Origin: a virus
Lineage: Duplodnaviria; Heunggongvirae; Uroviricota; Caudoviricetes
IMG/VR virus record: IMGVR_UViG_3300008987_000001
Length of the DNA: 64,000 nucleotides
Reading direction: 5' to 3' (one strand)
The notes beneath the pieces were generated by a model. It saw only the letters and a list, made by a program, of their open reading frames with translations, made no database searches and was not told where the DNA came from. This document shows, in pieces, positions 12,708 to 45,590 of this stretch; the stretch's first letter is position 1; every line of letters begins with the position of its first letter. A program made the position numbers and the translations under genes.

Positions 12708-12931
12708 GATTTTACCTCAAAAATGTTTTTAGATGACCTCCTGCTTGGGTCTTTCTTTAACTCCTAATTCGTATAACTTTTCGATTGTGTAGCCTGATTC
12801 CTTTTGAACCCTAACACATTTGAGCAGGGCACATTTAGCAGGGTTGCATGGTTGGTGTGTTTCGTAAATACAGTATAATGTCATGATCTATTCTCTCCAA
12901 TAAGTATAAATGTTAGAACGTTGTTTAATAT

Positions 12932-12992
12932 GGTGCCCCAAAGGCGAAAGAGTAAGGAAGGAGATCTTCTTCTTTCTTGTTCTTTTGTCAAG
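12932..12992 (+). ncRNA. Putative small RNA, family member 1
   Basis: TATAAA at 12905; GGTGCCCC at 12932; AGTAAGGAAGGAGATCTTCTTC hairpin; T-tract; TTTTGTCAAG. Confidence 0.5.
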
Positions 12993-13742
12993 AGTGTAGG
13001 TGGGGCCTTGTTTTAGGGTCGATTCTTTGAGCAATGGATGATCGTGTCGATGTGTTCAGCGTTTCTGATGTAGATGTTTCCTTGGAGTAGGCTTTCTATT
13101 GAATCAATCATAGAGCCTAATAACTCAAGATCTGGATGCATCGTTTCTATTTCAAATGTAAGGGTAAGTTTCATAGTGTATTACCTCATGTTTGTGGATT
13201 TTAAAGGCTGTCATCGTCCCATACTGGTTCGTTTGCATATTCAATTAACTCTTCATCAAAGTTAAGTGGTTTCATAATGGCACCTCATTTACTTGTTTGA
13301 CTGTATAATACTTACCTTCTGGTTTATGAGTTTCTAATAGTTCCATAAAGTCAGATAGGTTTAGTTCTGATTCAATGTGCATAGTTACTTCATAATGGTT
13401 CATGATTCTGCCTCATACCTAATGCTGACTGTTCGTTCAGGGGTGCCAAGTTTGCCAGAGTAAGATATGACTATGTAGGTTGTGATGTCCTTGACAAATG
13501 ATTCTAGGTCAGTGTCGGTTGTTGGACCCTTGAAAGTTTTAGTTCTGATCATGATTCATCACTCGCTCCATTCGGCAAGGTTGGTGTCGATATCTAGGAA
13601 TTTTTGTTTGAGGGTTAGTGCTTCCTGTTTAATAGGATTGAAGTCTGCTCTAGTGCTGTAGTATGTTGAGAGTGCACTATTGATGAGTTGGACTTCATTA
13701 GTTGTAAGGGTTATGTTATGTATGCTCATGATTTGTGCTCCT

Positions 13743-14189
13743 TTAGATGTAACCGAGTTGTCTCATGCTGCTGATTCCTACCTTGCTAATTATTATGTGA
13801 TCGAGTAGTGATATACCGATGATGTCACCTGCTTGTTTTATCTGGTTTGTTACATCTATGTCTTGTTTTGATGGATCTAGGTTGCCAGATGGGTGGTTAT
13901 GGATTGCAATGATGGCCATAGCATTGTCTTTGATTGCTGCACGGTAGATTTCACGGGGATGGATAAGACTGTGGTTTAGAAGTCCTTTGGTGATAGTATG
14001 GGTCTTGATTACTTCTGATGCTCCATTAAGGGTGAGAATAGTAAAGTGCTCTACTGATTTAGATGCAAGGTCTACAATGCTCTTGATTTGTAAGACATCT
14101 TCTGGGACTGTGATAGATGGGTGTTTTGGGATAGAGTATCGGGTTATCATCTCTTCATAAACTGCTGATGGGAATGATTTAGGGCTCAT
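13743..14189 (-). CDS. radC: RadC-family JAB/MPN domain protein
   Basis: E.F..L.L, HPREIYRAAI, HNHPSG..PS..D and LLDHIII motifs. Confidence 0.92.
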   Translation of the reverse strand: MSPKSFPSAVYEEMITRYSIPKHPSITVPEDVLQIKSIVDLASKSVEHFTILTLNGASEVIKTHTITKGLLNHSLIHPREIYRAAIKDNAMAIIAIHNHPSGNLDPSKQDIDVTNQIKQAGDIIGISLLDHIIISKVGISSMRQLGYI

Positions 14190-14356
14190 GATTTGTGCTC
14201 CTTGTATTTAGAATTGTTCAATCGTCTTCACAATAGTCACATTCCCATTGTCCACCACGGTATGATGCGGTTCCATCTCCATTTGATACGAATGGACCAT
14301 AGGGTATCTGATGCATTTCATTGAATGGTTTAGTTTTACCACACAGATGGCATTTT

Positions 14357-14620
14357 TTATAACACATGATTACACCTGCATTTACACGCTGAATTGATCA
14401 TTTCATTTACATATGGATTCATGATGGGTGATACCATAGCGAATCGTTTACACCATTCCCATGAGTCTTCCAAGTCATATGGATCACTGATGATGATGTA
14501 GGGTGTTTCATAACCGATGGTGATGCTGAACCATCCATTGGAGCATGATGAAATGTAGTATATGATTTGAAGGGTGATCCCATTGATGGTGACTTGTCTG
14601 CATAGTTTAGAGTTGTTCAT
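14357..14620 (-). CDS. Hypothetical protein
   Basis: ORF track; GGAG SD. Confidence 0.55.
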   Translation of the reverse strand: MNNSKLCRQVTINGITLQIIYYISSCSNGWFSITIGYETPYIIISDPYDLEDSWEWCKRFAMVSPIMNPYVNEMINSACKCRCNHVL

Positions 14621-14826
14621 GAGTTAACTCCATTGCACATTGTTTCATGATACACCTCACTCCAGTTCATTTATAGATTCAATTTGAATGTCATCTTTGT
14701 CAATTTCTATCCAAGTGTTTAAATTTGAGTTTGATATAATTTCATGCACTTTTTCTTTTGATGATGCCTCCACATATGCTTCATAATGGAATGTCTGTGA
14801 TACAGTTACGAGATATACCACCATGT

Positions 14827-15084
14827 TTACTCCTTCTCATTTGTGATAGGCTTATCATTTGTGGTTGTGCCATACATACGGGTATTTGCATAGGCTCGTA
14901 ATTCGATTGCTGCATCAAGGGATTTTTTAAAGGCTTCTGGGTTGTTAAAGTTACCAGATACCTTGATTTCTCCCTGCCGACCCGGTGTGCCAATGGTTAG
15001 GGTTCCTTTACCATCATCATCAGTGATGTGCTCAATTTTAATGTTACGAAGAATGGATCTGTCTAATTTGTCAAAGAGGGACAT
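14827..15084 (-). CDS. Hypothetical protein (IGTP..QG.IKV.GNFNNPE motif)
   Basis: ORF track; GAGGT SD. Confidence 0.7.
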   Translation of the reverse strand: MSLFDKLDRSILRNIKIEHITDDDGKGTLTIGTPGRQGEIKVSGNFNNPEAFKKSLDAAIELRAYANTRMYGTTTNDKPITNEKE

Positions 15085-15095
15085 GTTGTGTTACC

Positions 15096-15305
15096 TCACT
15101 TAATTGATTTGAGTATGCGATCTTCTACTACGATTTGTGCATACCATTTACGTTCTGATTCAGATGGTCCAACAATTGCCCCCGTGTAAGTTTCAAGGGT
15201 TTTAAATTCAAATGGCGATGGTGAGATTACGTAACCAATCTCTTTACCTTTCATGTTTTTTAATGCTGTTTTAGTTTTGAAATATGATGAGAGGAATGCT
15301 GTCAT
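15096..15305 (-). CDS. Hypothetical protein (VGPSE.ERKWYAQI motif)
   Basis: ORF track; GGAG SD. Confidence 0.65.
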   Translation of the reverse strand: MTAFLSSYFKTKTALKNMKGKEIGYVISPSPFEFKTLETYTGAIVGPSESERKWYAQIVVEDRILKSIK

Positions 15306-16568
15306 GGGATTGTTACTCCTTAATATTAAATGTCTTTAACGGTTAATGGTTCTTCAGTCCATATCCATTTATGAATGTCATAACCTTTTAAACAACAAGA
15401 CGGTCTGCCATAATCATAAATATCATCTGCTGTTTCTGCAAAACATGGTTTACTGCATGATTTACATATCCATTTGCCATAATTTACTTTCATGAGGTGT
15501 TACTCCGCTTAATTGACAGTTTGACTTCATGATGGAAGTAGTAGGCTAACTAGACTGTATAATATATTGTAGGAAGGTGTTACTATTGCACCTACAATAC
15601 ACCGTAAAGGGGTTAGTTTAACAGAAATAGAGAAACAGAGGGATTGGCATAACAGTTTTTGTGCTTTACATCCGGAACCTGATAACGGATCAAATGCATA
15701 ATTGGAGTTGAACCAATATGTGCATAAAATATGATATGTGGAAGGTTAGGGCTTGGTGCTTTGTTTCATATGGGTGGATTTGAGTAATGGATCGGGCTGA
15801 ATGAGTGTGGTAGTTTTTATCACAGGGTTTCACCTGTAAGGGTAGTTATGGAATTGCACCATGTGAAACTATTCTACCTAAAATGTATTGGGGTGTGTTG
15901 TTTCATATAAATGAAGTTTAATGCTGGTGTGGTCATTTTATATGAGTTAGGGGTAAAAGAATGGCTACGGTTTAGTTTTTGACAAGGGTTTCGCCTTGAA
16001 ATATGTGGAAGGATGGATTGAACCTTCTGCACATATACTTTGTTCGATTGTCGATTAACCTCTTGCATCTATCACCGATAGACTCTAGGGGTTTTTAGTT
16101 GTTAGTTGTCGTGGGGTATACCGTTCGGATCTGGGTGTCTATGCTTCCAACAATCATTGGAGGGATACTAATGATATTTATCCACTATAATAGTTCTATT
16201 TTAGAACCTTCGTATAAGTGGTATCACTGACCATACCTATGTTGGTTCAGGGATAGACGATCCTAATTGGGTGTTTGCCTATATCACAAGGGGGAGTATA
16301 CCACGCTCATAGTCCCTTGCTCATCAGTGTAGCACACTTCATTGGTTGTTTCGAGCAACCTCCTGTGCACATACAATAGTTGACGTTTGAAGTATATAAT
16401 GATTGTGATTTTATATTGGGGGTTGTATATTTGTTTGTGGAAAGGTGATGATTTGTGGTGGAATAACCAGGATTTGGGGCCCTGGAGCAAAATAGAGGGT
16501 GATTTAAGTGTGGATTGGTTTAGTCATTAAGGATATACTGTCATATAAGTTGTAAAAACTAATACTTG

Positions 16569-16610
16569 GGTGCCCACACGATGAAAAGTATAGGAAGTAA
16601 TCTTTTTTAG
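16569..16610 (+). ncRNA. Putative small RNA, family member 2
   Basis: TATAAG at 16544; GTGCCCACACGATGAAAAGTATAGGAAG is near-identical to 45292-45318; ends at TCTTTTTT. Confidence 0.5.
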
Positions 16611-16637
16611 GTGATGAGTTACTATTTTAGTAATTGT

Positions 16638-17294
16638 TTAGTCTAAAGCGCAAATGTAATTACCGTATTGAGTGGCAATAGCGCAAGCAATTCCACTGTA
16701 AGTAATACTTCTCAACTTCCATCTATCGGCTGATGGTGCCATGTAGTGGCATTTGTTGGTTTGGTTTTTGGGTAAGGTATCCATGATGGCCTTGACATTG
16801 TTGGTTGGTTGTAATAATGGTAGATTCTTGAGCCATAAGCAGGTGGCTTTGGTTTCAGTGTGGCCAAATTGATAGGGTTGGATTATTTGACTATGATTCG
16901 CACCAATAAGGGCTTTAGCGTGCTTATGCATGATTGGGTTTTCGATGCAGATGTGTGGGATGTTTGCATTGTAGAGTGTTAAGAAGAAGTTGGCTGCTTC
17001 ATTGAGGTTGGACCATCGTTCTTCATTACGGGATTTATCCTTATTATATAACCAGCGCACGCCACTATTTGTGAGATACTGACAACTTGGATGAGCAATC
17101 ATGAGGTCATAGTCGTTGTTGAGGATATCACATACATCGCCTTGGTAATGGAGTGATGGATCTGTGTATTTGGTTGATTCACAGGGCAATAGATCACAAC
17201 TAATGGCATTGAAGCCCCGATCAAGGAATGCGTCTCTTACGGTTCCTGAAAATTCACATGCCACAAGGATCTTGGTGTCTGATGGTTCACGCAT
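16638..17294 (-). CDS. Phage C5 DNA-cytosine methyltransferase-like protein
   Basis: ILVACEFSG (motif I-like), SCDLLP, GDV, AHPSC (catalytic PC region), IENP (motif VI), QPYQFGH and K.TCLWL motifs. Confidence 0.7.
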   Translation of the reverse strand: MREPSDTKILVACEFSGTVRDAFLDRGFNAISCDLLPCESTKYTDPSLHYQGDVCDILNNDYDLMIAHPSCQYLTNSGVRWLYNKDKSRNEERWSNLNEAANFFLTLYNANIPHICIENPIMHKHAKALIGANHSQIIQPYQFGHTETKATCLWLKNLPLLQPTNNVKAIMDTLPKNQTNKCHYMAPSADRWKLRSITYSGIACAIATQYGNYICALD

Positions 17295-17439
17295 GAGGTA
17301 AATGTATAGAAGTGGAAGTATAAAAATAGATTGGTAGTGATCAATAATATGATTATGTAAAAGAGGTGCGGTGAGGTGGACTCACGTGCTGTAATGAGAA
17401 TACTCAAAGATATGGTCGTATAAAAGAGGTATGGTGTGG

Positions 17440-17685
17440 TTAGTCATTGTAATGGAAGTATTCAAACACATGACTAGTCATGATCTGATATGCCATATTG
17501 GTGTAGTAATCCTGAACTGCCAATGGAATTGTTATGTTCTCAAAATCTAATATGGTGGACTTGTTTAGATCATCTAGGTTGATGTTGAATGTGATGTGGG
17601 CTGTGGGGTTGAATCGGATGGTAAGTATGCCTTTGTTAGTTGAATCGTCTTGCTGATAGTCAATTGATACAGTGTTTATGGTCAT
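17440..17685 (-). CDS. Hypothetical protein
   Basis: ORF track; GGAG SD. Confidence 0.6.
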   Translation of the reverse strand: MTINTVSIDYQQDDSTNKGILTIRFNPTAHITFNINLDDLNKSTILDFENITIPLAVQDYYTNMAYQIMTSHVFEYFHYND

Positions 17686-17703
17686 GTTGTTATTGCTCCT
17701 TGG

Positions 17704-17910
17704 TTATATGTCATCTGGGTGGAATGATGCATTTCCACATTTAGGGCATATCATTGGTGGGATGGTTGGATCGCTGGTGATTATCGCTGTCCATTTGTCG
17801 AATTCAGAGTGTGAGCGTTTGTGACAGTGAGGACATGTGTAATAACAGGTATCTCCATCATCAGAGTCTACAATTGCTACTGGGAGACCATGATTAATTT
17901 CACTTGGCAT
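17704..17910 (-). CDS. Zn-ribbon protein (2x CxxC)
   Basis: CPHC...CPKCG; TATA upstream at about 17931. Confidence 0.65.
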   Translation of the reverse strand: MPSEINHGLPVAIVDSDDGDTCYYTCPHCHKRSHSEFDKWTAIITSDPTIPPMICPKCGNASFHPDDI

Positions 17911-17987
17911 ATAGGATAATGGGTGTTAAAAGTATATAATTGTTTGGGTTTTATATTGATGGGTTGTGAAAATAGAGGGGGGTGTGT

Positions 17988-18881
17988 TTATGTTTTGCTA
18001 ATGGGCTTATTGTATTCTTCGGTTGCTTCATCGACAAGGAGATCCATAAGTTCAAGGGTGTCACGATCTCGTTTGTTTAGGTAGTAATCAGATGCTTTGC
18101 GTTTCATGGAGTTTGTAATGGCTTTCATGCGAAGAGTTGGTGAGATTGTTACTTTAAAGATGTCACGGGCCTTTTGCTGCGCACTTCGCATATGTTTCTC
18201 AAGGATGAGGTTGATCATGTGATCGAATTTATCATCTGGATTCAGGAGCCTTGGAATTGCTTCATAATAGTTACCTTCTTCATCGGTATTTGGCTTCCGT
18301 GCCTGACATTGTGTGCAACAGTATCGTGACCCCATGTTAGTGACTGCTTTGAATACTGATTTGCAAGTGTTGCACCGATACCATAGAGGGGTGAGACCAC
18401 GGGCATGATTCGCACATGTTGATGAGCAGTAGATACCTTGTCCTTTCTTAACGCGGTGCATCTGGATGGTGAATTCTTTGTTACAAAAGGAGCATCTTCT
18501 TACTACATTCCCGCGTTTCCTCACGATAGTTGAATCATCAGGGGTCCGGTTACAACTATAGTATTCAGAGCGGCAAGAACGTGAGCAGAATTGCTTGGAC
18601 GATGAATGTGTCCATTCTGCTGCTCCACAATTCTCACAGATGCAGATACGTCCACCACCATTTGATCCGGGACCATACAATGGGTGTTCTTCTAAACCAA
18701 GAGATGCCAGATGGTATTCATGATTGACAAATCTTTTAGTGCCCTTGTTGAATTCATTTGCTAATTTCCAGAATTCTTTGCCTTTCAAATTCATGGTTCT
18801 CACAAATTGGTTGTCAGAGTATTTAAATGTTTTGGTCAGCGAAGCAAGGGGGTATTTTAGTGTTTTGTATAGATATTTCAA
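17988..18881 (-). CDS. Protein with 3 tandem CxxC..F...(F/Y)CSxxC treble-clef Zn-finger repeats
   Basis: CENCG...FCSRSC, CSFCNKEF...YCSSTC, CNTCKSVF...YCCTQC. Confidence 0.75.
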   Translation of the reverse strand: MKYLYKTLKYPLASLTKTFKYSDNQFVRTMNLKGKEFWKLANEFNKGTKRFVNHEYHLASLGLEEHPLYGPGSNGGGRICICENCGAAEWTHSSSKQFCSRSCRSEYYSCNRTPDDSTIVRKRGNVVRRCSFCNKEFTIQMHRVKKGQGIYCSSTCANHARGLTPLWYRCNTCKSVFKAVTNMGSRYCCTQCQARKPNTDEEGNYYEAIPRLLNPDDKFDHMINLILEKHMRSAQQKARDIFKVTISPTLRMKAITNSMKRKASDYYLNKRDRDTLELMDLLVDEATEEYNKPISKT

Positions 18882-18913
18882 CTATTATGAAACACCCTCT
18901 CTTTATAATGTAA

Positions 18914-19234
18914 ATGGGGGGTTGTGTTATGAATGATCCATATTTGAGACTTGATGAGGTTTTGGTTGTAAAGGATGATGTAAATGATATCTATGCATTA
19001 CGGGATGACATGTATAGAAATGGATATATAATGTATAATAGGCATGATTCTGATGGGAGTTATTGTTTTGTGAAAGAGAGTGTGCTTATTGAGTATGTGA
19101 GTGTATTGTGGGAACATATGAGGGTTGAGAATGTCATGGACCATGAAGAGGTGACCAAGTTAGAGTGTTTATTGAGAGATCCATTACGATATGAGTGGAA
19201 ATGGAAGAATTTTAGCAATAGAGGGGAATGGTAA
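18914..19234 (+). CDS. Hypothetical protein, inverted relative to the left arm
   Basis: ORF track; CCCTCTCTTTATAATGTAAA promoter-like motif at 18895-18914; true start probably ATG 18929. Confidence 0.55.
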   Translation: MGGCVMNDPYLRLDEVLVVKDDVNDIYALRDDMYRNGYIMYNRHDSDGSYCFVKESVLIEYVSVLWEHMRVENVMDHEEVTKLECLLRDPLRYEWKWKNFSNRGEW

Positions 19235-20329
19235 GGATTACTTTTTTTATACAATTATTTATTTGTTGAGTTCACCGATTGAACAATTATAAAGGATTGT
19301 CATGACTTAAGTTCACTGGGGTCGTCCTTATATATAAAGATTGTGTTGGTAAGTAAGGAAGTTGCTTCGTCAAGGCACTTTTGGGTGCAAAGTGGGGTGT
19401 GGTGAAATGCAAACTCGATGATTTGGGCTTGGTTACAAAAAATCCAACAAAGGGTTTATATACTATTAGTTACATACCTCTACAACAGGATAGATGAGAA
19501 TTAATATATATAGCGGGATGGTTTAAAATGTTGTTTTCTGTTATATGGATGTTAATTTTATATTGGGGGCGTATAGCCCTTCCAATTTTAAAAATGACAG
19601 ATAGTAGTAAGTGGTTTGTGCGATAAAATAAGGCTAAACTGGTTGTCCTTTGCCTTTTGCCCTATATATATATATATGAGGGCCCAAAACCGGGTTGTCT
19701 CCTTCCTCCGATTTCCAACCCATTTTGTTTACCTTTCAAAATTACGGGTATTTTAGTCATCTTTAAGTTGGCCAACCAGTTTAACTTTGAGAGATCCACT
19801 ACTTGAGAATAAGTGACGCCACGCTCAATTCCCACGTAAACTGGTGCGCTTCTGATTTCAAGACCAGAAATGATACCTGTGCAATATCACCGATCTCGCG
19901 ATCCAATTAGTGACAATTGCATTATTCTCGATTCGCTGATCGTGGTCCATTTCTCGCTTGAAAAAAAAAAAGTGCGTTGTTGTGATCTCGAACGGGCCGC
20001 TCCCCTAGATAAAATAACCCAAAAATCCTTTAAACCTCTTAAATTTTCTACAGACAATTTTTATGAAGACTTGGATTCTCCACCATTTAGGGCTTTAAAT
20101 CGAAAAATATAGAGCCCGGTATGGGCTTGAATTTTGAATATTCGATTTGATGTGAGATTATACAAAAACACTGATTTTAATTAGAGATTTTCACTAGCAA
20201 CAGAGTTGTGAAAAAAGTGACGCTGCTATCGTTTCAACATTTTTTGGTCACATGAGATCCGGAATGCGGTCCCATATGAAGCCCTTTTGCTGAACAAATG
20301 ATGGTGCAAAGAACAGGTTGTCTGATGCG

Positions 20330-20590: not shown

Positions 20591-20757
20591 GATGTTTTTT
20601 TCGATGTTCGGATGGACGATCTGCCTGACGGTTCCACCGGAAAAACCTGGATTTCCACTGGAGTAACACGAAAATTTTTATTCGTATTAAAATATAAAAT
20701 GAGAAATATAAAATTATTTTTATAAAAGTATTAAAATATTAATTGACAAATATAAAC

Positions 20758-21247
20758 ATCAATGTACATATTTATACATATGCACATATATGATCATGGA
20801 TGTACAAAAATATACATATGTATAAAGATGGTTATCAATGTACACATTTATACATCATACGAATATGAAATTTTTACATACAAAGTATTACGAAAAAGTG
20901 AATTCGTATGATCATAAGAAATTGATATTTTGTAATACTCCGTAACACTAAAACATAAATTCGTATGATCATAACAATTGATGAATTCGTGTTATTTGTT
21001 GTTACGAAATGTATTAATCGTATGATCATAACAATTCATCATTTAGTATTATACAGTATGAATAAAGTTAAGATTAGTGTTACTGGTATCTTTTCTATAC
21101 TGATAACACGAATTGATCATTTAGTATGAAAGAATGTTACGAAAATTCAAATTAGTATGATCATACGATTTGATCAATTCGTATGAAATAGTATTATGTT
21201 TTTGAAAAATGTGTTACCAGTATCTTTTCTATATCAGTAATACGAAT
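20758..21247. repeat. AT-rich block with palindromic TATGATCATA repeats and duplicated elements
   Basis: AATTCGTATGATCATAA at 20901 and 20958, variants at 21016 and 21155; ATCAATGTACA(T/C)ATTTATACAT at 20758 and 20835; GTGTTAC..GTATCTTTTCTATA....TAA.ACGAAT at 21078 and 21211. Confidence 0.8.
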
Positions 21248-22135
21248 AGTTTTATTTTTCATACTTTATTTATGTATGGTCATAATGTTTTAGATGGTTC
21301 ATACTTTTTTAGACTTATCAAACATTTTTAGAATAATCTTAAATTTAATTATTTTTATAAAAGTCATCACAATATATAATGATTAATCATGATAGATTGG
21401 GGCTTCCCGTGCCGGTTTGTGACCATAGGTTCATGAATGTAATTCTCTGCGTGAATTCAATATTATTTTTGATTTGAGAGGTTGCACACCCATTGATTTC
21501 ATAGACTGTCTATATTGATGGATACTGCACACCCTTGTATGAATGCATGGCTACATTTATGATCAATCCTGATAGCCTTGTGGTGCGTTATGGTGCATTT
21601 TGGGATAGGTCAATAGGGCATTCTCCTATTTTATATATGTGAGTTATATATAATTGGTTTTATACTTCATACGATGTATTACGATTAGTTATATTGTTAT
21701 GCGTATTATATTAGTAGACCTGGATATAACCAGGATGAGCCTGGATTTCAATTTAGAGGTCAAATCGTTGTCAGATTATCATTTTTGATCGAAGAGTTTC
21801 AAATCACACATATACTATACGCATTTTTCGATTGAAGGTATATAAAGCCGATATCTATATATAGCATTGACGATAATCTTTATGGGTAGATGTTTAGCCT
21901 CGCACTGACATCTAGCACAACCCTTCTCCTGCTCCTCATGATGCATACTCTATGAGGGAGAAGTATACCGGCAAAAATCGAAGTAGGAGCGAATAGGATT
22001 CTTCTTTTGGGAACAGTCGATTTTTTAGCGCGTGATGACCTTAAGAGCCCTATCAATGGCCGAAAAGATTCAAAAATTAAACCTTATGCTTTTTCGCACA
22101 TAAAGCCTCTTTATCGGGCGTGGAGTGAAAGAAGT

Positions 22136-25582: not shown

Positions 25583-25789
25583 TTGCTACTTACCTGTGAG
25601 TTTTGTCAAACGACTTTCGAAACATATCTCAATGAACTGAAACGTGGCCGTGGCCAATTTTGCTGCAGGAGTTGTGCTGGCAAATTCAAGCATAAAAAAC
25701 CACACCCAATGATCTGCAAAACCTGTGGTCGTTCATACATGTCTTACACAGGCAGATTATACTGCTCAAATAAATGTGCTGAAATATAA
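25583..25789 (+). CDS. Small double treble-clef Zn-finger protein
   Basis: CEFCQTTF...RGRGQFCCRSC and CKTCGRSY...YCSNKC; same repeat type as 17988..18881; GGAGG SD. Confidence 0.7.
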   Translation: MLLTCEFCQTTFETYLNELKRGRGQFCCRSCAGKFKHKKPHPMICKTCGRSYMSYTGRLYCSNKCAEI

Positions 25790-27594: not shown

Positions 27595-27803
27595 CTTTAC
27601 CTAAAAATCAACTACTTTTATAATCGCCCACTTATTATATACAACCACAACTTTGCGCTACACTCTATCCATCACTTCAAATCACCCAAAATCTCACTAA
27701 TTCACCATAACATTTATATACTTAAACTACACACCATATAATGTCAAGGATGCGTGCGATTACAATTCGCCCCCCTTACATAGAACTAAAAGGACATATT
27801 ATC

Positions 27804-28007
27804 ATGACTCTACCAATTGCAACTACAGAACGTGTGATTCGTGAAGCAGGCGTCAGCCGTATCTCAAGTGAGGCAACCAAACTCATTATTGACAGTGCCG
27901 AATCATACATCAAATCCCTTGCTACCAGATCATACTCGTATGCAACCCATGCTGGCCGCAATACCCTCAAGGACAGTGACGTCAGGGCAGCCCTCGGCAT
28001 TGAGTAA
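27804..28007 (+). CDS. Archaeal histone (HMfA/HMfB family); alternative start 27741 adds 21 aa
   Basis: MTLPIATTERVIREAGVSRISSEA...HAGRNTLKDSDV is in register with HMfB (LPIA, R10, G16, R19, H49, G51, R52, T54, K56, D59). Confidence 0.92.
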   Translation: MTLPIATTERVIREAGVSRISSEATKLIIDSAESYIKSLATRSYSYATHAGRNTLKDSDVRAALGIE

Positions 28008-28113: not shown

Positions 28114-28455
28114 TTATTCGTCCATTGCTTCTTTTATACTTTCCACACTTCTCCACCCATCAATCAGTTCCATAACCTTCTCAAGGATATCCACACCAAT
28201 TCTACTCGGCTTATACAGCACATCCCGACCATGGCCAATTTTTGTGACGAATCCACCATCAATTAACTCCCTGACAACCTTTTCATGGCCAATTTTATCC
28301 TTTTCAATCGGCCCATCTTCATAGATCCGCACAAAAACATCAAACGTACGTCTATTCAATGCACAAAAAACGTCCCTATAATCTAAATAACTTCGCCTAC
28401 ACATAACTATATATAAATTGTATACATCAACTATATATACATATGCCAACAACAC
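28114..28455 (-). CDS. Winged helix-turn-helix transcription regulator
   Basis: Helical core, then LIDGGFVTK...VLYKPSRIGVDIL wing motif typical of archaeal wHTH proteins. Confidence 0.65.
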   Translation of the reverse strand: MLLAYVYIVDVYNLYIVMCRRSYLDYRDVFCALNRRTFDVFVRIYEDGPIEKDKIGHEKVVRELIDGGFVTKIGHGRDVLYKPSRIGVDILEKVMELIDGWRSVESIKEAMDE

Positions 28456-28761: not shown

Positions 28762-29019
28762 TTAGTCAACTAGATCGAATGTCCAGCCACATGATTTACA
28801 TCGTGCATACTTACCTTTCATGAACAATTCATCAACATAAAGGGTCTGGTACTCATAACATCCACAATTTGGACATTTAATAGCATCAAACACTTCATTA
28901 TCAATAAGTTCAGCCTCATCTATATCATAAGGCTCAACATAACAGATGTAATCCCAAACACTAAATAGAATCCATACTATTGTAAATCCAACAAGTATGC
29001 CAATTATAATACCAATCAT
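28762..29019 (-). CDS. Membrane-anchored Zn-ribbon protein
   Basis: N-terminal TM helix; CPNCG...CKSCG. Confidence 0.65.
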   Translation of the reverse strand: MIGIIIGILVGFTIVWILFSVWDYICYVEPYDIDEAELIDNEVFDAIKCPNCGCYEYQTLYVDELFMKGKYARCKSCGWTFDLVD

Positions 29020-30431: not shown

Positions 30432-33218
30432 ATGTCATCTGAAAATCTTTCTCTAAAGGAACGGTTGGAGTTTGCAAAAACCGTAAGCCACGGAAGAAAG
30501 GATCCTGTATGGTTTTTGAAAGATATTATTGGTTGGACTTCTATTTTCCCTATGCAAGAGGAAATAGTTAGACGCTTCTATCAAAATAAGTACGATCCTT
30601 CCTTACAAAAGTATAAAAAGTTAATAGCAAGGTGTGGTCAGAGGTGTTTATCTGGCGATTCTCATGTATATACAAATCATGGATTAATACAAATTAAGGA
30701 TTTATATACAAATAATGACGATGTCCAAGTATATAATGGAAATGCTTGGGTATCACCATCTGAAGTGATATTTGCTGGTAAAAAATCATTATTTAAAATA
30801 ACTACTGAATATGGATTTTCTATAGAATGTAGCGAAGATCATAAATTTTATACATACAATGGTAGAAAACTTGAGTGGAAATCATTAAAAGATATTAAAA
30901 TAGGGGAAGATTGTTTACAAGTTGTAAAGGGGTTGCATTGTAGTGGAACTGATCAAATATCTGACAAAATGTGGAGAGATTTTAAAGCATTTACTAACCA
31001 AAATAAAACAAAATATATTCTACCTGACAAAATAACTCCGGAGTTAGCATCAGTAATGGGTATGTTAATTGCAGATGGTGATATTGCAAATAAAGGGAAA
31101 ATACGATTTACAAAGGGTGATAGAAGTTTAATAGATTTTTATGTAAATGGGATGAAGCATCAATTTAATTTAAATTGTAATGAGTATTATAAAGAAGGAA
31201 ATACTCAAAGTATTGAGATATATAGCGAAGTAGTAAGACATTTTTTATACTGTGTGGGATTGGACTTCACGATATCTTCAACTAAACATATTCCACATTG
31301 TATATTAAATGGTACAAAAGAAATACAAGTTGCATTTTTATCTGGATATTTTTCATGTGATGGGAATGTTCAAGAATCTAAATCTGGAAAATCAAAGAAA
31401 TGTAGAGTAACATCTACTACTGTATCAAAGCAATTAGCATTTGAATTACAGGGCATGTTGCTTGGGCTCGGAATAATTTCATCTATATCTATAAGCAAAT
31501 CTGTAGAATTTGGCAGTCGTATAAAGCGAGACAATGATGCATTTACATTAAATATATTTGGAAAGGAAATACTTGCATTCTATGATAATATAAAATTAAT
31601 TTCTACTACTAAACAAGAAAAATTTAACAGTGTATATCTATCTCAAAAAAGTAAACGAGTAAAAGGTAGATATTTACCCATCTGTAAAGATCTTTTACAT
31701 GAGTGTTTTGAATACCATTCTTCATTAAGACATATGTGGAAAAAAGATTCAAAGGAGTTTCTCATAGATAAGCATAAAGATTTGTATAATGGCGGTTCTG
31801 ATATAGTAGATCAGTTGATAAAAGAAGATAATATCTTTGTGATGGTCAAATCTATACAGGATCTTGATGCATGTATAGATATGTATGATCTTCATGTCCC
31901 AGAAGGTAATTGTTATGTTGCAAATGGATTTTTGACTCATAACAGTGGGAAGACAGTTCTAGGCTCAAAGATTGCTATTTATGAATTTTTTGAATTAGTG
32001 TCATTAGATAATCCTGCAGAATACTATGGACTGATTAAAAATCAGGAAATAGCAATAAATTGTATTGCTGCTGGCAAAGAACAGGCATTAGAAGGTATGT
32101 TTTCACTGATGCGAAATGATATAGAAGAGAATGAATGGTTCAATCAATGGTTTGATCTCAAGATAACTGAAGGGAAAATAACATGCGATAAGAAGCATGT
32201 TTATGCAAAGGTGGCCGCAGCACGCGCTGATTCGGGATCTGGTACTGGTACAACGTCCAAATTATCATTGCTTGACGAAGTGGACTTATTTCAACGAACA
32301 GACTCTAAAGTTGGTTCAGAAGTAGTTATATCAAAAGCACTCAATGCAACTAAAACACTTGGACTTGATGGTAAATTTGTAGCAATTAGTTCTACTCAAT
32401 TTACGGATGGTGCAATCACAAAACTATATATGGATGGTCAAAATGAGACAGATACTCTAGTATATAATTTACCCACATGGATTATGAATCCAAAATTTAC
32501 GAAAGAAACATTAATGGAAGAGTACAGATACAAAATGCACATGTTTTGGAGAGATTTTGCGAATCAACCAGAAGTATCTGGTGGTTTGATGTTTCCAAAT
32601 GGCGTTAAGTTTAATAAAAATATTCCAAATGTATTCTTCGCAGATGAACAAATCGTTGATGAATATGCTCAACATTATCACGTAATTTCGTTGGATCCAG
32701 CATTTAGGAACGATGCATTTGGAATAGCATGTGGTTATGTAGATGGTAATAATATTGTTATTGACGGTGCTAGGAAATATACAAAAGAACACGAAACAGA
32801 AGCATTTATAAAACCATCTGATATGGAAAATGAGATAGAGCGTTGGGTTGAAAGATTGAACGTAACTACATTGCTTTTTGATGCTGATATTATATTAAAC
32901 ATTGTTGAAAAAGCACAAGATCAATGGGGGATTACTACTATAAAAAATATAGTTGGTGAAAAAGAATATGGGATGTGGCTTAGTTTAAATGATGGAATTG
33001 GAGAATATAATCTCGACATTACTTATGATGAGTATGCAAAGAGAGAGGCGGAACAATTAGTAAAATCACAATTACCAAGTGGTAAAATACGGGTGGATCA
33101 CCCATTTTCAGGATCTAAAGATGTTGCAGACTCTATTTGTCAAACAATTTACTTTTTAAGCCAGAACAATACAGGCAATACTTGGAATCCTATTGGGCAT
33201 CTGGCAGCAATGCGATGA
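30432..33218 (+). CDS. terL: Terminase large subunit, intein-containing
   Basis: The spliced Walker A reads GQR|SGKT; Walker B LLDEVD; ISS coupling motif; RNase H-like SLDPA...D and terminal D.AD. Confidence 0.92.
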   Translation: MSSENLSLKERLEFAKTVSHGRKDPVWFLKDIIGWTSIFPMQEEIVRRFYQNKYDPSLQKYKKLIARCGQRCLSGDSHVYTNHGLIQIKDLYTNNDDVQVYNGNAWVSPSEVIFAGKKSLFKITTEYGFSIECSEDHKFYTYNGRKLEWKSLKDIKIGEDCLQVVKGLHCSGTDQISDKMWRDFKAFTNQNKTKYILPDKITPELASVMGMLIADGDIANKGKIRFTKGDRSLIDFYVNGMKHQFNLNCNEYYKEGNTQSIEIYSEVVRHFLYCVGLDFTISSTKHIPHCILNGTKEIQVAFLSGYFSCDGNVQESKSGKSKKCRVTSTTVSKQLAFELQGMLLGLGIISSISISKSVEFGSRIKRDNDAFTLNIFGKEILAFYDNIKLISTTKQEKFNSVYLSQKSKRVKGRYLPICKDLLHECFEYHSSLRHMWKKDSKEFLIDKHKDLYNGGSDIVDQLIKEDNIFVMVKSIQDLDACIDMYDLHVPEGNCYVANGFLTHNSGKTVLGSKIAIYEFFELVSLDNPAEYYGLIKNQEIAINCIAAGKEQALEGMFSLMRNDIEENEWFNQWFDLKITEGKITCDKKHVYAKVAAARADSGSGTGTTSKLSLLDEVDLFQRTDSKVGSEVVISKALNATKTLGLDGKFVAISSTQFTDGAITKLYMDGQNETDTLVYNLPTWIMNPKFTKETLMEEYRYKMHMFWRDFANQPEVSGGLMFPNGVKFNKNIPNVFFADEQIVDEYAQHYHVISLDPAFRNDAFGIACGYVDGNNIVIDGARKYTKEHETEAFIKPSDMENEIERWVERLNVTTLLFDADIILNIVEKAQDQWGITTIKNIVGEKEYGMWLSLNDGIGEYNLDITYDEYAKREAEQLVKSQLPSGKIRVDHPFSGSKDVADSICQTIYFLSQNNTGNTWNPIGHLAAMR
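30645..31943 (+). mobile_element. Intein (433 aa) with a LAGLIDADG homing endonuclease
   Basis: Begins CLSGDSHV and ends YVANGFLTHN, followed by Ser; LAGLIDADG motifs VMGMLIADG and FLSGYFSCDG. Confidence 0.95.
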
Positions 33219-33257: not shown

Positions 33258-34850
33258 ATGTCTAATAAGCCCAGACCTAAAAAACGCACCACTCATCATT
33301 TTAGTGCTCCTGCTTCAAATAAACTTCCCACTCAAAATTTCACAAACCCTGCAGTGGCAGGTGCAGCAGCACAACAGTCAAATAATAGTGAGTTTGTCAA
33401 CTTTCTCAATGGAATAAGCAATTTCCACGAGATGACCCGTGATACCCTCGTTGAGCATCTATATACAACTGAACCAGAGATCGCCACTGCAGTTGATAGT
33501 TTTGCATTAATGGTAAGAAATGCCTTCCAATTTTTTGATATCGTCAATTATAATGAGATTGATAACATCCCAGACACCCTGACTATTGATGATGCGACCC
33601 TTGACTTCACCAAAGGCAAAGATCTGGCCAAAGAAATGATTGATGTTGCCAATGCTATAGGTCGTGAACAGGATATCAAATCATTATATGAACAGTATGC
33701 CGCCATACTCAAGTTACATGGTACCTTATTTTTACTTGTTAATGACAATGGGAGCCTTACCCAATTACCCAACGATCACGTTACTATCATCGATAATACT
33801 GATAGAATACAGGGCCTTGGATCTTATGGAAACACTGAATACGAAGACCTCATCACCGAAGCAAATTATCTGGTACTCGATGAAAACCTTAATACCCAGA
33901 GGATCTATCCACGGGGCAAGTTCATAATTGTAAAGTTCCATGACACCCCTATATACATTGAGGATTCCAAGGGACGAGTCACATACGGTATTTATGGAGT
34001 CTCACCATTACGCAGAGCAATCATTCCTGTGTGGTATAGGCGTATTGTGATGTCAAATGATGCACTTTGGAGATACAAAGCGGTCCCTCGTATGCTTCAT
34101 CAACTCGATGCCAGTTCATTTAACACATCTAATTTCACCGGGTCAGCACGTTTACGAATGGAACAGGCACAGTCAGCAGCATCTGCAGCAATTGAAGCAC
34201 ATAAAGCAGCAATGGAAGAGATTGTTCCAGATCAGTCCATTGTAACCCTTACTACCACTGATGTTAAGATGATCGAGCCATCAAGTGCAACCCATCTTGA
34301 AACCAATGCAGTAATTGATCAGATGACCGATAGCATATTTAGTGCCATTGGACTCCCACGATCCATTATTCAGGGCATGTCATCCTCTAATTACGCAGGA
34401 GAACTGGTAATATACTCTCATGCAAATGACAAGATTAGTCAGATTGCAAATAAAATCAGTCGTGCTGTTCTCATTGCAATGAAGCGTAAACTCATCAAGA
34501 TGAACCCGGAATATCCAATAGATCTCCTTGACATTAAAATAAGTTATGATTTATCCGCGAATGACTTGGAATCAGCCAAAATTGCCCAACTTATGGAATC
34601 CATGAATAAATTCACGGATGATGAAATTCGTGCCAAGATGAAATACAAACCGATGACTGATGAACAGCGTGAAGAAATCGAAAAACGTAAAGAATCAGAA
34701 AATAACGAATCAGCACTACTCAATAATGGTGGACAATTGGGCGCAACATCCGATGGCAAAGTGAATTACCCAACCACTGCCACCTCAAAAAACCAGCAAC
34801 CCACAGATGGTGCCCAATCAAAAATCAACGATGCATTGGGTTATGAATAA
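33258..34850 (+). CDS. Portal protein
   Basis: 530 aa, immediately after TerL; YGVSPL motif; helical content; low-complexity C-terminal tail. Confidence 0.8.
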   Translation: MSNKPRPKKRTTHHFSAPASNKLPTQNFTNPAVAGAAAQQSNNSEFVNFLNGISNFHEMTRDTLVEHLYTTEPEIATAVDSFALMVRNAFQFFDIVNYNEIDNIPDTLTIDDATLDFTKGKDLAKEMIDVANAIGREQDIKSLYEQYAAILKLHGTLFLLVNDNGSLTQLPNDHVTIIDNTDRIQGLGSYGNTEYEDLITEANYLVLDENLNTQRIYPRGKFIIVKFHDTPIYIEDSKGRVTYGIYGVSPLRRAIIPVWYRRIVMSNDALWRYKAVPRMLHQLDASSFNTSNFTGSARLRMEQAQSAASAAIEAHKAAMEEIVPDQSIVTLTTTDVKMIEPSSATHLETNAVIDQMTDSIFSAIGLPRSIIQGMSSSNYAGELVIYSHANDKISQIANKISRAVLIAMKRKLIKMNPEYPIDLLDIKISYDLSANDLESAKIAQLMESMNKFTDDEIRAKMKYKPMTDEQREEIEKRKESENNESALLNNGGQLGATSDGKVNYPTTATSKNQQPTDGAQSKINDALGYE

Positions 34851-37856: not shown

Positions 37857-38714
37857 TTATCTATAGCACGTAAGATCTTCCAATTTACGTTGATAGAACT
37901 CAAATATATTACGTGGCATACTGTTAAAATGTTTACGTGCTTCCTCATTAACATATTTTGCTACTTTAGGCATTGCCATCTTAACATCTTTGAACTGTTC
38001 AATTCCAAGATCGGCTAAAACTTTATCAATTGCACCATAAACTTCACTATCTGGTAATACAGGTAATTGAATGGCCCCATCTTTTATATCACGTGGTATT
38101 TTATCCAATTTGACAGTATCATGCTTTTCTTTAACTGCCAACATCCCAAATGAATAACTTGGATTATACGATTTTATGACAAATCCTTCAATTTCTGGAT
38201 GATCATTTAACATCTGATCTCGATATTCATACAATTCATCCAATTGAGTATGTCTCGTAATAACTTCAACTTCAATGCACTCAATGTTAAAATGATGACA
38301 CTGCTGATGTAATACTATATGTGGTGTAAATTGCCCAGTTTTTGTTGTATATAAGTCAAATGCAACAAATCTAGCATCGTCATAGTGAGCAATTCTTGTA
38401 GGTGACTTGCCCTTTGACATTAATTCACCAAATAATACATATTCACTTCCCCAATTTGAGGTATCTTCCAACAGATCCTTCACATTATCAAGTAACCCAT
38501 CTATACCTGCAGCAGTTGCTAGCATATCAGGTGATGCTAATGGTAAGTTGCGGGATCCCATGCATAAATTATGTTCACTATCAAGATAAAATCGAACATT
38601 AGAACCATCCCACTTTGGTTGCCATAATAGTTCTTCGCCTAATATCATACCCGGTCCAGGATATAACATCGCAATTCGATTCAAATGTGGGTATTTAAGT
38701 TCTGATAACTCCAT
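37857..38714 (-). CDS. ATP-dependent RNA ligase (Rnl2-like nucleotidyltransferase)
   Basis: Motif I PKWDGSN, III LFGEL, IIIa FVAFDL, IV EGFVIK, V AVKEK; helical C-terminal domain; no OB-fold. Confidence 0.8.
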   Translation of the reverse strand: MELSELKYPHLNRIAMLYPGPGMILGEELLWQPKWDGSNVRFYLDSEHNLCMGSRNLPLASPDMLATAAGIDGLLDNVKDLLEDTSNWGSEYVLFGELMSKGKSPTRIAHYDDARFVAFDLYTTKTGQFTPHIVLHQQCHHFNIECIEVEVITRHTQLDELYEYRDQMLNDHPEIEGFVIKSYNPSYSFGMLAVKEKHDTVKLDKIPRDIKDGAIQLPVLPDSEVYGAIDKVLADLGIEQFKDVKMAMPKVAKYVNEEARKHFNSMPRNIFEFYQRKLEDLTCYR

Positions 38715-42836: not shown

Positions 42837-42884
42837 ATATATATAATGTAAATGTGCATTCGCCTCAATAAGAGGCAATAAAAT

Positions 42885-43625: not shown

Positions 43626-43724
43626 AGTTTTAACTTAACCCAATTATATTTATGAGGTATAAAACTTAATGGCATCATGTAATAATTATATAAACACAGT
43701 TATATTTGTGGGGTACAAAACTTA

Positions 43725-44591
43725 ATGTCAACTATACGTGGCTTGGCACTTGATACTACCGGTATTGCTATAACGGATGGTTCATACCAAGTCAATCGTA
43801 ATTTAATCAGTGAAGATGCTGCCAATATACCAGGGGAGCCCCAAATATACGGCGGTATCTATGCTGTAAATGGCTCATTCAGTGCTGCATATCGCCCACA
43901 AACACTCAATACATTCATTGAGAGTGGCATACTTGGTAAAACTGGGGGTGGTGTATCAGATACATTCACCCATTATGACATCACACTTGGCAACGAACTA
44001 GACAAAACATGGACATTTGCATCATGTGCCCTAACAAGTTGCGAGATATCCATGCAGGCTGGTCAATACAGTAAGTGCAATTTCGAGTGGATCGGTACCT
44101 ATAAGAAGTTAACAGACACCACGATCCCAGCAGCAGATTACACCAAAGAACCAACGCTATTCTACAATGCCTATTTAGATAACATAAAGTGCAGAGGTAT
44201 CACTTTCAGAATAGATCGTCCATTGGGTGCAGATGATACCATTCTGGGATCCGAGTATAGCCAGAGCCTTGTACAAACAGACAATCTCACTGTTGGAGGA
44301 ACTATCACCTTATCAAACAAAGATTACACTTTACTTGACGAAGTATTATACACCACAGATGAAGCAAATTGGAACAACGATGATCCCAAGAACAACACAA
44401 CCTACTTTGGAGATCTCACTGTAAAGTTTAGAAACCCCGCAGGAACCATCGATATGTGCGAAATATACATTGACGAGATCCACGTTCAGGAACTTGATGT
44501 GTCTGTAACCGGATTACAACGATTCGAGAAAACTATCCAGTGGAAGGCAAAAACCACAGATACACTCGGAATAACCTTTACAACCCCATAA
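43725..44591 (+). CDS. Tail tube-like paralogue 4
   Basis: ITFRIDRP..ADDTILG...GGTITLS; C-terminal G...FEKTIQWKA resembles the C-terminus of the major tube protein (G...YTKTVNWKA). Confidence 0.65.
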   Translation: MSTIRGLALDTTGIAITDGSYQVNRNLISEDAANIPGEPQIYGGIYAVNGSFSAAYRPQTLNTFIESGILGKTGGGVSDTFTHYDITLGNELDKTWTFASCALTSCEISMQAGQYSKCNFEWIGTYKKLTDTTIPAADYTKEPTLFYNAYLDNIKCRGITFRIDRPLGADDTILGSEYSQSLVQTDNLTVGGTITLSNKDYTLLDEVLYTTDEANWNNDDPKNNTTYFGDLTVKFRNPAGTIDMCEIYIDEIHVQELDVSVTGLQRFEKTIQWKAKTTDTLGITFTTP

Positions 44592-44645
44592 ACCAACTAT
44601 TTTTACACACTATTAACACTATGCTCACTCTTTATATAAGGTAAA

Positions 44646-45038
44646 ATGGTAGCATTGGGCATGGTAAAGAAATCTAGTGGTCCAAAAGAGATTACAGTAA
44701 AAACCGACAATGACACATATACACTAAAAGTCCCAACTGGAGCACTCGGCTGGAAACACTTCAGATTACTCATGGAGATTGAGAACGAACGCCGCAATTC
44801 AATCGTCGAGAAACGCCCAAATCCTGAAACAGGTGAACTTGAAGACGTTATGCTTCCAAATCCAAAGTTAGATGAACTCATGATAACTGTCATGGACAAA
44901 TGGATGGATCAAATCATGCCACACATCTGTATAAGCCACGATTTTGAAGAAATACCATGGGTCGAAATTTTGGTTATATTTAACAGCATATGCTCCAATT
45001 CGTCAATCGACACGAGCAACTTTCGCGATCTTCAGTAA
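44646..45038 (+). CDS. Tail assembly chaperone (lambda gpG-like; start may be 44661)
   Basis: Between tube genes and TMP; overlapped by a +1-frame ORF. Confidence 0.7.
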   Translation: MVALGMVKKSSGPKEITVKTDNDTYTLKVPTGALGWKHFRLLMEIENERRNSIVEKRPNPETGELEDVMLPNPKLDELMITVMDKWMDQIMPHICISHDFEEIPWVEILVIFNSICSNSSIDTSNFRDLQ

Positions 45039-45261
45039 TCAGGAATATCTTGACGGCACATATCAATTTCTCGATCCTGATGAATATGAAGATAGAACGG
45101 ATGAATACCTCCAAGCAATTGGATTTTTGGCCCTCATGAGTGGGAGATTACCATCAGAAATATTCGACGACGATAACTGGAATGAAACAATTCTCTTCAA
45201 CCTTCGCGTATCAAACAGTGTATTCCGCGTAATCCTCGATGTGCTGAAATTACGCATGTGA
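45021..45261 (+). CDS. Frameshift-accessed C-terminal part of the tail assembly chaperone (gpT-like)
   Basis: TTT_CGC at 45021-45026 just before the gpG stop; the +1 frame is open to 45261 with protein-like sequence AIFSNQEYLDG...ALMSGRLPSEIF. Confidence 0.6.
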
Positions 45262-45291
45262 ACATTTATATACTAGCACAACATATATAAT

Positions 45292-45347
45292 GTGCCCACA
45301 ACGACAAAGTATAGGAGGGAGACCTTCTTCCTCTTTATTTTGTTAAG
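45292..45347 (+). ncRNA. Putative small RNA, family member 5
   Basis: TTTATATA at 45265; GTGCCCACAACGACAAAGTATAGGAGGGAGACCTTCTTCC; TTTTGTTAAG. Confidence 0.5.
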
Positions 45348-45590
45348 CATCTATTGTTCCGTTATGAAGCCCGCCTGTCCACCGCGTTAAGCACCGCCTC
45401 GCAATGTCAAATCTACAAGAATAGCGACCCGACCCAGCCACTCTTGACAAAATGAAAAGATAAAAGGAGTGTCCAATTCCAATTATCTGGGTTTCAAATT
45501 TTTGTCATTGTCCTGGTCAGACAAGTATACATTGTACATACTATTATATAAGTGTTTTGTAATTATACCATTTCTCATATATAACACTTT

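Follow-up and report, generated by a model that had tools for sequence, protein, structure and literature searches.

Promoter-Driven Hairpin Units, Most Likely Small Non-Coding RNA Genes of Two Subtypes, in a Tailed Virus With Archaeal Features

Introduction

The virus record IMGVR_UViG_3300008987_000001 of IMG/VR (Caudoviricetes) provides a stretch of DNA of 64,000 nucleotides (nt), hereafter the window, which belongs to a tailed virus that has archaeal features. A preliminary description of this DNA had drawn attention to six loci as copies of one family of TATA-driven, small-RNA-like units without a convincing coding frame. The present analysis found all six where they had been placed and supports a family of several copies whose members, in a virus of archaeal type, are structured, non-coding and promoter-driven. 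The family is real, structured, strand-specific and conserved, and its members are most likely small non-coding RNA genes of two subtypes, type 1 (units A, C and D, with B as a degenerate copy) and type 2 (units E and F). The census of units in this genome covers the window, and comes to the following:

Unit A, type 1: 12904-13014, plus strand; TATA box GTATAAAT at 12904-12911, start box ATGGTGCCCC from 12931.
Unit B, degenerate type 1: 16542-16608, plus strand; TATA box CATATAAG at 16542-16549, start box GGGTGCCCAC at 16568-16577.
Unit C, type 1: 28733-28625, minus strand; TATA box TTTATATA at 28733-28726, start box ATGGTACCCCC from 28708.
Unit D, type 1: 45265-45350, plus strand; TATA box TTTATATA at 45265-45272, start box ATGTGCCCAC from 45290.
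Unit E, type 2: 20440-20332, minus strand; TATA box TTATATAT at about 20440-20431, mini-hairpin GUCG-ACAC-CGAC at 20410-20399.
Unit F, type 2: 45551-45445, minus strand; TATA box TTATATAA at 45551-45544, mini-hairpin at 45522-45510.

Anatomy of the Two Types

Across all units, canonical TATA boxes lie 25-29 nt before a start box, which takes the forms ATGGTGCC, ATGTGCC and GTATGTGC at the position expected for an archaeal start. In the type 1 units A, C and D, the start box stands 25-27 nt after the TATA box, and a C/A-rich 5' end of 10-14 nt leads into a G:U-rich hairpin of 17-22 base pairs (bp), followed by AAG and T-runs. The 5' arm is purine-rich and the 3' arm pyrimidine-rich; the purine element and the pyrimidine tract noted separately in the preliminary description are indeed present, but as the two arms of this one hairpin. 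The stem base, GACAAA/UUUGUC, is conserved, with AAG, a short G-rich linker and a U-run next to it, and the inner stem can be likened to a duplex of Shine-Dalgarno (SD) and anti-SD sequences, AGGAGG being paired with CCUCU.

Unit A has a stem of 22 uninterrupted bp (six of them G:U) and a UCU loop at 12943-12989, followed by AAG and a T-run at 13008-13014; it folds with a z-score of -3.7 and a free energy of -23.5 kcal/mol, versus -6.5 kcal/mol for the opposite strand. The TATA box of unit C is preceded by a C-rich box typical of the late-promoter family, and its hairpin (28695-28649, 17 pairs, z -3.15) is followed by AAG and by T-runs near 28628-28625 and 28613-28609. In unit D, the TATA box comes directly after the stop codon of the tail chaperone, and the hairpin at 45303-45344 has 19 bp, including four G:U pairs (z -3.74), with AAG next to it. 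When the hairpins of A, C and D are taken by themselves, z ranges from -4.6 to -5.5, the full units giving -3.2 to -3.7. Unit B has only a 5-bp stem (-1.0 kcal/mol, z +0.24) and a T6 run at 16603-16608. It had been described as nearly identical to unit D over about 27 nt; the likeness is confined to the 5' halves of the two, where some 24 of 29 positions agree once two indels are allowed for, and B lacks the long hairpin. It keeps the promoter, the start box and this share of the D 5' half, and is treated here as a putative decayed type 1 copy.

Type 2 units are built differently: 29 nt after the TATA box comes a mini-hairpin of 3-4 bp, then an interrupted hairpin of 22-26 bp, again with the base GACAAA/UUUGUC. 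The mini-hairpin reads GUCG-N4-CGAC in unit E and in three related viral contigs (L062, L066 and L069), and GUCU...AGAC in another relative, G001, a matched change. The long hairpin of E (20397-20332) has 24 bp with internal loops and the loop CAUUGACCA, AAG coming next; F-type units in relatives are matched by the 5' region of unit E (TGTCGCACCCGAC). The long hairpin of F (45507-45445) has the apical loop AUUGGACAC at 45477-45469, the base GACAAAA/UUUUGUC with arms 47 nt apart, and the same AAG. E and F had been set beside the other loci for their shared 3' end; both units are real, but they make up a distinct subtype with promoters of their own.

Motif Counts, Model Scores and Database Searches

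The arrangement of a TATA box followed by GTRCCC, on which the family had originally been based, occurs six times in the window, with the two elements 19-24 nt apart, at five distinct places of which four are named loci; shuffled sequences give a mean of 1.43, and one of 100 reaches six. As a family mark, GTRCCC holds for these four loci, but by itself it is not enriched (29 occurrences versus 30.7 expected). It largely belongs to a local initiator box, which is at least in part a general initiator signal since the same box is found at another promoter of the window (TATA box at 16400 on the minus strand, box at 16373). The 3' motif TTTTGTYAAG has four occurrences (in A, C, D and F) versus 0.40 expected, a number that none of 100 shuffles reaches; unit E carries CTTTGTCAAG in its place. 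Neither GTGGAC nor AAGNATGGT shows enrichment across the window, and the GATC found at hairpin tips is not special, this tetranucleotide being over-represented throughout.

Alignments of the hairpins made with MAFFT slid out of register and RNAalifold was uninformative on them, so that a covariance model and a custom mapping of pairs to columns were used; generic hairpin scans were too unspecific, and a regular-expression search for type 2 too strict. The covariance model, a check put forward in the preliminary description, was trained on A and C only and then run on the window, where it scored these two at 87.6 and 82.8 bits and recovered D at 36.9 bits (E-value 1e-6). On type 2 the model is weak (12.5 bits and E-value 0.7 for unit E; E-value 3.5 for unit F), and unit B went undetected by it. 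Nothing in the whole window matched an Rfam family at gathering score, in agreement with the earlier view that the family had not been described; permissive scans gave only hits with E-values of at least 0.2 to microRNA-precursor, ctRNA and other small-hairpin models, which were taken as noise, and no tRNA was found in the window. A scan of IMG/VR for exact patterns from the 3' half of the units returned 53 single matches, none related to the window, and the region of D and F gave no blastn match among GenBank phages.

Folding, Strand Preference and Covariation

When units of the window and of its relatives are considered together, 18 out of 19 fold as a single long hairpin, with z-scores from -1.8 to -7.0 and up to six G:U pairs in each stem. 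The strand downstream of the promoter gives the more stable hairpin in 14 of the 19, the mean difference being -6.2 kcal/mol (Wilcoxon p 0.001). Pairing is also maintained between orthologues. For unit D, with six orthologues, 90.2% of cells are paired, versus 57-66% when partners are slid by one to three columns, and four pairs (8 cells) have changed on both sides, for instance from C-G to U-A at the base of the stem. For unit F, with seven orthologues, the figures are 79.8% versus 46-57%, and nine pairs (18 cells). In both cases none of 500 shuffles reaches the observed covariation score, a count to be read as supportive rather than as proof, the alignments holding few sequences and the structure being derived from these same sequences. 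Each of the seven F orthologues forms one hairpin, in which the apical UGGACA is invariant and the stems differ; this loop opens with YUGG, which is probably akin to YUNR, the U-turn motif known from loops of antisense recognition. Together, these data point to a structure that would be under selection, and on one strand. The frames that open at the predicted start sites are unconserved among D orthologues, in line with the earlier statement that the units encode no convincing open reading frame (ORF).

As for the 3' ends, no U-run abuts the stem: AAG and a linker of 15-25 nt precede the next one. In the units of G001, the presumed stop is a U6 run that follows a small GC stem, which suggests an RNA ending at U6 with a length of about 85 nt. 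By the same kind of prediction, the products in the window would be of about 84 nt for A and C and about 41 nt for B.

Conservation at Fixed Positions in Related Viruses

Relatives were reached by three routes: the portal protein led to the IMG/VR contig G001, which has 72% identity in this protein and is collinear with the window across the late operon; with the tube protein (43725-44591), L060-L065 were reached (41-70% identity); and L066-L078, mostly from digester or sludge samples, were added by a metagenome scan. Searches with the RuvB-like protein against viral contigs and with the portal protein against genome contigs gave nothing useful. Conservation in relatives, the lack of which had been named in the preliminary description as a refuting outcome, is seen, and comes with the compensatory changes reported above. 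At least eight distinct genomes of relatives have the family at fixed positions, and orthologues of A, C, D and F keep both position and orientation in related metagenomic viruses.

The interval between the chaperone and tape-measure genes gives the most consistent picture, as every fetched contig that spans it has D, F or both there; D orthologues are found at this place in G001, L062, L063, L064 and L066-L074. The A orthologue of G001 (33783-33870, minus strand; hereafter G001-A) is directly upstream of the RuvB-like gene and also antisense. A probable orthologue of C lies at 16990-17110 on the plus strand of the same contig (G001-C), upstream of the homologous winged helix-turn-helix (wHTH) gene, with a gene of 281 amino acids (aa) inserted between the two. 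G001 also has a convergent type 2 pair at 25584/25969, in a neighbourhood corresponding to that of E, and in L064 the portal gene is followed by an additional unit, which precedes a reverse-oriented gene of 105 aa. Paralogues within a genome have near-identical promoters and 5' regions, whereas orthologues differ there, a pattern that fits concerted evolution or a genome-specific partner.

Genomic Setting of the Units

The genes and features that surround the units are the following:

1-20000, leftward transcription: left arm, with RuvB-like and RadC-like genes.
11790-12707, minus strand: RuvB-like gene of the early operon.
27741-28007: histone-fold gene.
28114-28455, same strand as unit C: wHTH gene, with its own promoter.
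28762-29019, same strand as unit C: Zn-ribbon ORF.
30432-33218, plus strand: intein-bearing large terminase gene, late operon of the right arm.
33258-34850, plus strand: portal gene, late operon of the right arm.
43725-44591: tube protein gene, late operon of the right arm.
44646-45261, plus strand: tail chaperone pair, late operon of the right arm.
45351-45444: D/F spacer, 94 nt, GC-richer, between convergent D and F, with a conserved GTCCAC box at 45377-45382 (plus strand).
From 45626, plus strand: tape-measure gene of 3,215 aa, with its own promoter at 45594.

The antisense placement reported for several loci applies to A, B and F, which oppose the surrounding operons. Unit A is antisense within the minus-strand early operon, just upstream (in the sense of the operon) of a 51-aa ORF and the RuvB-like gene; both A and G001-A overlap the intercistronic region upstream of that gene, not its start codon. 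Unit B is antisense to a gene at 16638-17294 (minus strand), while C shares its strand with both of its neighbours, the Zn-ribbon ORF and the wHTH gene. Unit F is convergent with D, antisense to the late operon and back-to-back with the tape-measure promoter at 45594. Unit E is found about 300 nt to the left of an AT-rich iteron block (20690-21250) with five tandem units of 57 nt, repeats of 38-44 nt and large inverted repeats; the block separates the leftward from the rightward gene arm and looks like a replication origin or control region.

Indels adjoin A, where the 51-aa ORF is extra in the window, and C, where the 281-aa gene is extra in G001. Variation is also marked between D and F. This slot measures about 150-190 nt in G001, L062, L066 and L069 and about 105 nt in L067; its cargo is a 121-aa ORF in L064 and L077, whereas L060 and L061, which have lost D, carry a 401-aa multi-HTH gene there. 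The 401-aa protein (11560-12765 of L060, minus strand; also in L061) has hits to HTH_Tnp_1, Sigma70_r4, HTH_7 and HTH_23 and a Cys-rich C-terminus, and may be a DNA-binding protein of the mobile-element or homing type. On the plus strand of the spacer between chaperone and tape-measure genes, GTCCA(C/G) occurs two to four times in L055, L060, L062, L066, L067 and L069, one copy being complementary to the F loop; the motif may be a box to which a protein binds, or serve as a contact site for RNA. Just ahead of the tape-measure gene, the two ORFs of the chaperone pair (44646-45038 and 44944-45261) overlap in different frames, a layout typical of tail chaperones that are produced through programmed frameshifting.

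The promoters of the window are of the TATA type, and one repeated family reads CCCCCTTTATATAT(G/T)GTAAA. The leftward operons probably have a further class of promoter, seen as a 28-52 nt repeat in three copies (16367-16418, 17907-17958 and 19542-19569), which on the minus strand forms a module of CCCCCAATATAAAA, then ATTATATAC; the copy at 16367-16418 continues into GTATGTGC. The region 15495-16400 (minus strand) begins with a strong promoter, with the TATA box at 16400 and the start box GTATGTGCAC at 16373. Beyond it lie some 850 nt of C/A-rich sequence with no convincing ORF, only frames of 47-68 aa of odd composition, and small genes resume at 15493. This stretch, which has no blastn match in G001, may correspond to an extended leader or to a long non-coding RNA. 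An RNA-ligase-family gene at 37857-38714 (minus strand) lies on the opposite strand within the late structural operon and resembles an inserted accessory gene. Over the whole window, several 4-bp palindromes are strongly avoided, which suggests restriction pressure from the host: AGCT occurs 14 times versus 222 expected, CTAG 58 and GTAC 88 times, and GCGC and CGCG 26 times each versus 83 expected. GATC (352) and TGCA (422) are over-represented. A Lar-like restriction-alleviation domain is encoded at 1853-2248 (minus strand).

Interpretation

We lean, with moderate confidence, towards reading the units as small autonomous transcription units that produce promoter-driven hairpin RNAs of about 40-100 nt and probably act locally. 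Each would start from a strong archaeal promoter, made of an A-rich or C-rich box and then TTTATATA, with initiation at the start box some 25-29 nt on; a U-run would then halt the archaeal polymerase, giving a discrete small RNA. The RNAs, or the act of making them, may work in their immediate surroundings. A and F would fire against the neighbouring operon, like the cis-antisense RNAs oop of lambda and sar of P22, and the YUNR-like loop of F could provide a kissing-loop contact for read-through transcripts. D and F, bracketing a variable cargo slot, may punctuate and insulate transcription at module junctions, a role suggested because the slot between the chaperone and tape-measure genes carries different cargo across relatives.

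Several points weigh against this reading. The start sites, the 3' ends and transcription itself are ones that we infer, and the evidence for a local antisense or insulating role consists solely of position and orientation. Only short U-runs (U4-U6) come after the hairpin, and none is clear for the window units D, E and F, so that these three may have longer transcripts. The start box, which is shared with one other promoter of the window, says little about RNA function. Support for a helix that would close the 5' end on the 3' linker is weak (permutation p 0.08). A search of the window for trans targets with at least 11 nt of complementarity returned only cross-matches between units, and no recognisable partner protein was seen among the window ORFs scanned. 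Finally, the presence of units beside indels also fits a role at the DNA level, as cassette boundaries.

This last point leads to the main rival explanation, which is unlikely, namely that the units are cassettes in the manner of the promoter-early stem-loops (PeSLs) of T4-type phages, in which a promoter with a stem-loop insulates transcription and serves as a repeat for recombination, any short RNA being a by-product. The same role has been described for the phage elements (PMC2839356), and variable content does adjoin the units: the D/F slot is empty in the window and holds the 121-aa ORF in L064 and the 401-aa gene in L060, the 281-aa gene is extra at the C locus of G001 and the 51-aa ORF at the A locus of the window, and the additional L064 unit stands ahead of a reverse-oriented gene after the portal gene. 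The near-identity of paralogous promoters and 5' regions (about 40 nt between G001-A and G001-C; B versus D) is what gene conversion would give. However, the hairpin here always lies 10-14 nt past the predicted start, no same-strand gene precedes A, F or G001-A, the hairpins are strand-asymmetric, and stems diverge yet keep their pairing while the F loop is invariant, which points to selection on the folded strand and not on DNA identity. A doubtful variant of transcription from the units, rated below the cassettes, is that the hairpin heads a long sense or antisense transcript as a promoter-proximal leader or attenuator, controlling read-through by regulated U-run termination or by acting on the polymerase in a put-like manner. 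The missing strong U-run after the hairpins of D, E and F in the window would fit, as would the same-strand genes downstream of C (wHTH), of the extra L064 unit (L064_3149; 105-aa), of the F unit of L060 (401-aa) and of G001-C (281-aa), and long counter-transcripts are documented in halovirus HF2, according to the abstract of that study (PMC8707807). Yet those downstream genes have TATA boxes of their own, at the spacing expected if the leader is short or missing; long transcripts reading through from the convergent D and F would run into each other; and most relatives have a U5-U6 run within 15-30 nt of the hairpin, preceded in G001 by a small GC stem. A plain terminator of the upstream gene was also tried and rejected, A, F and G001-A being without a same-strand upstream gene and the U-run not abutting the stem.

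The remaining alternatives depart further from a local transcriptional role. It is quite improbable that the units make trans-acting decoy or anti-defence RNAs, such as mimics of the CRISPR repeats of the host (Racr-like), ribosome-titrating mimics of SD or anti-SD sequences, or sponges for an RNA-binding protein of the host, with the number of copies providing dosage. Several copies with strong promoters, a conserved stem base, AAG, a C/A-rich 5' end and the UGGACA loop would suit such RNAs, as would the resemblance of the inner stem to an SD:anti-SD duplex, but the variable stems of 17-26 bp are unlike CRISPR repeats, making membership in RNA anti-CRISPRs unlikely, the SD-like purines are sequestered within the stem, and the conserved position and orientation would be unneeded for a gene acting purely in trans. 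Still less probable are palindromes acting as DNA, in the form of protein-binding or recombination sites (attC-like, repetitive extragenic palindromic-like, like miniature inverted-repeat transposable elements (MITEs), or single-stranded DNA hairpins). A and G001-A are perfectly palindromic at their centres (AGATCT), a slot of variable cargo is flanked by D and F in inverted orientation, and one strand of the spacer carries repeated GTCCAC boxes; single-stranded DNA might also fold on the favoured strand. Against this, the G:U-rich stems fold far more weakly on one strand, and the strand that they favour is that read from the promoter; the distance between the arms ranges from 3 to 47 nt; Pfam scans of 46 ORFs of the window brought up no recombinase, transposase or reverse transcriptase; and D and F keep their place in relatives whose tube protein is only 41% identical. 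D ends in GTTAAGC, a match to the integron core GTTRRRY, but only some units have such a match, and no inverse core was seen among them. A transposon or MITE origin of the D/F pair was considered and set aside, its position being stable across distant relatives and its arms facing inward behind promoters. Least probable of all, and close to negligible, are leaderless micro-ORFs, in which a short peptide, such as MVPQRRKSKEGDLLLSCSFVKSVGGALF in the case of A, would begin with the start-site ATG. Archaea commonly have leaderless mRNAs, and an ATG is indeed present where the start is predicted in units A, C and D, with frames of 28, 52 and 18 codons, respectively, as well as in several relatives. 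The frames of D orthologues, however, have 4, 7, 18, 22 or 27 codons in different frames and with unrelated sequences, A and C differ in the frame in which they read the nucleotides common to both, no such ATG is present in B or in type 2, and conservation tracks base pairing, not codons.

Beyond the reading of the units as locally acting hairpin RNAs, a fuller proposal can be made, which we regard as speculative and rather unlikely as a whole: that the two subtypes form a virus-wide system of RNA punctuation, new for archaeal viruses. Constitutive hairpin RNAs would be made from strong promoters at fixed junctions, and their C/A-rich 5' ends and the UGGACA kissing loop would catch read-through transcripts from the opposite strand; alternatively, the RNAs might bind a host RNA-binding or defence protein. 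Operon boundaries would thereby be set, or the genome protected, with accessory genes still free to be swapped in the bracketed slots. Very little has been described of the non-coding RNAs of tailed archaeal viruses, and least of all of those in viruses of anaerobic-digester archaea. The family offers concrete candidates for RNAs that such viruses make, for archaeal transcription stop sites, and for antisense or convergent mini-genes that shape operon boundaries and slots. In addition, the slot between chaperone and tape-measure genes lends itself naturally to the insertion of cargo, which is useful for understanding such viruses and, later, for engineering them.

Comparison With Known Systems

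PeSLs were described in the T4-type phages RB49 and phi1 (Arbiol et al., 2010; PMC2839356), where a stem-loop within or upstream of a promoter terminates incoming transcription and the promoter drives the next ORF, which is translated via a Shine-Dalgarno sequence (PMC2839356). Like them, the units A, C, D, E and F and those of relatives are dispersed repeats that combine a strong promoter of host type with a stable stem-loop containing G-T pairs, and they may likewise be concentrated beside variable accessory genes, a few copies inside conserved modules included. Unlike PeSLs, their hairpin would be transcribed from its own promoter, no SD-led ORF follows directly, A, B and F point against the adjacent genes, and the stems covary with one loop invariant. 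The class I and II intergenic repeats of halovirus HF2, as given in the abstract of the study, are promoter elements of 58 bp and 29 bp (Russ, Pfeiffer and Dyall-Smith, 2021; PMC8707807). The present units share with these their intergenic location in an archaeal tailed virus, the promoter that they carry and the conservation of sequence and position among relatives; they differ in that the HF2 abstract gives long transcripts and describes neither a transcribed long hairpin nor a short product (PMC8707807).

With intrinsic terminators and archaeal oligo-T terminators, the units have in common a stable hairpin and U-runs in and after the 3' arm, and D is placed where a transcript of the tube and chaperone genes could end. 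Unlike terminators, the hairpins are each preceded by a promoter of their own (10-14 nt upstream), there is nothing ahead of A and F that they could terminate, a gap separates the stem from the U-run, stems of 17-26 bp go far beyond what termination needs, and the sequence of the F loop is conserved.

The oop RNA of phage lambda (77 nt) and the sar RNA of P22 are short cis-antisense RNAs, each with its own promoter, one or two hairpins and a terminator, and opposed to an operon. The units differ from them by their archaeal signals (TATA box, oligo-U stop), by the number of copies (at least five per genome, in two subtypes), by the location of C and D on the same strand as their neighbours, and by stems that are much longer and asymmetric in purines and pyrimidines; they are also known here from sequence alone. 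They nonetheless resemble oop and sar in their predicted build, with a dedicated promoter and a product of tens of nucleotides dominated by a hairpin, and A, B, F and G001-A lie on the strand opposite to the adjacent genes. By this analogy, antisense RNAs of the oop and sar type would be the nearest functional analogues of the family.

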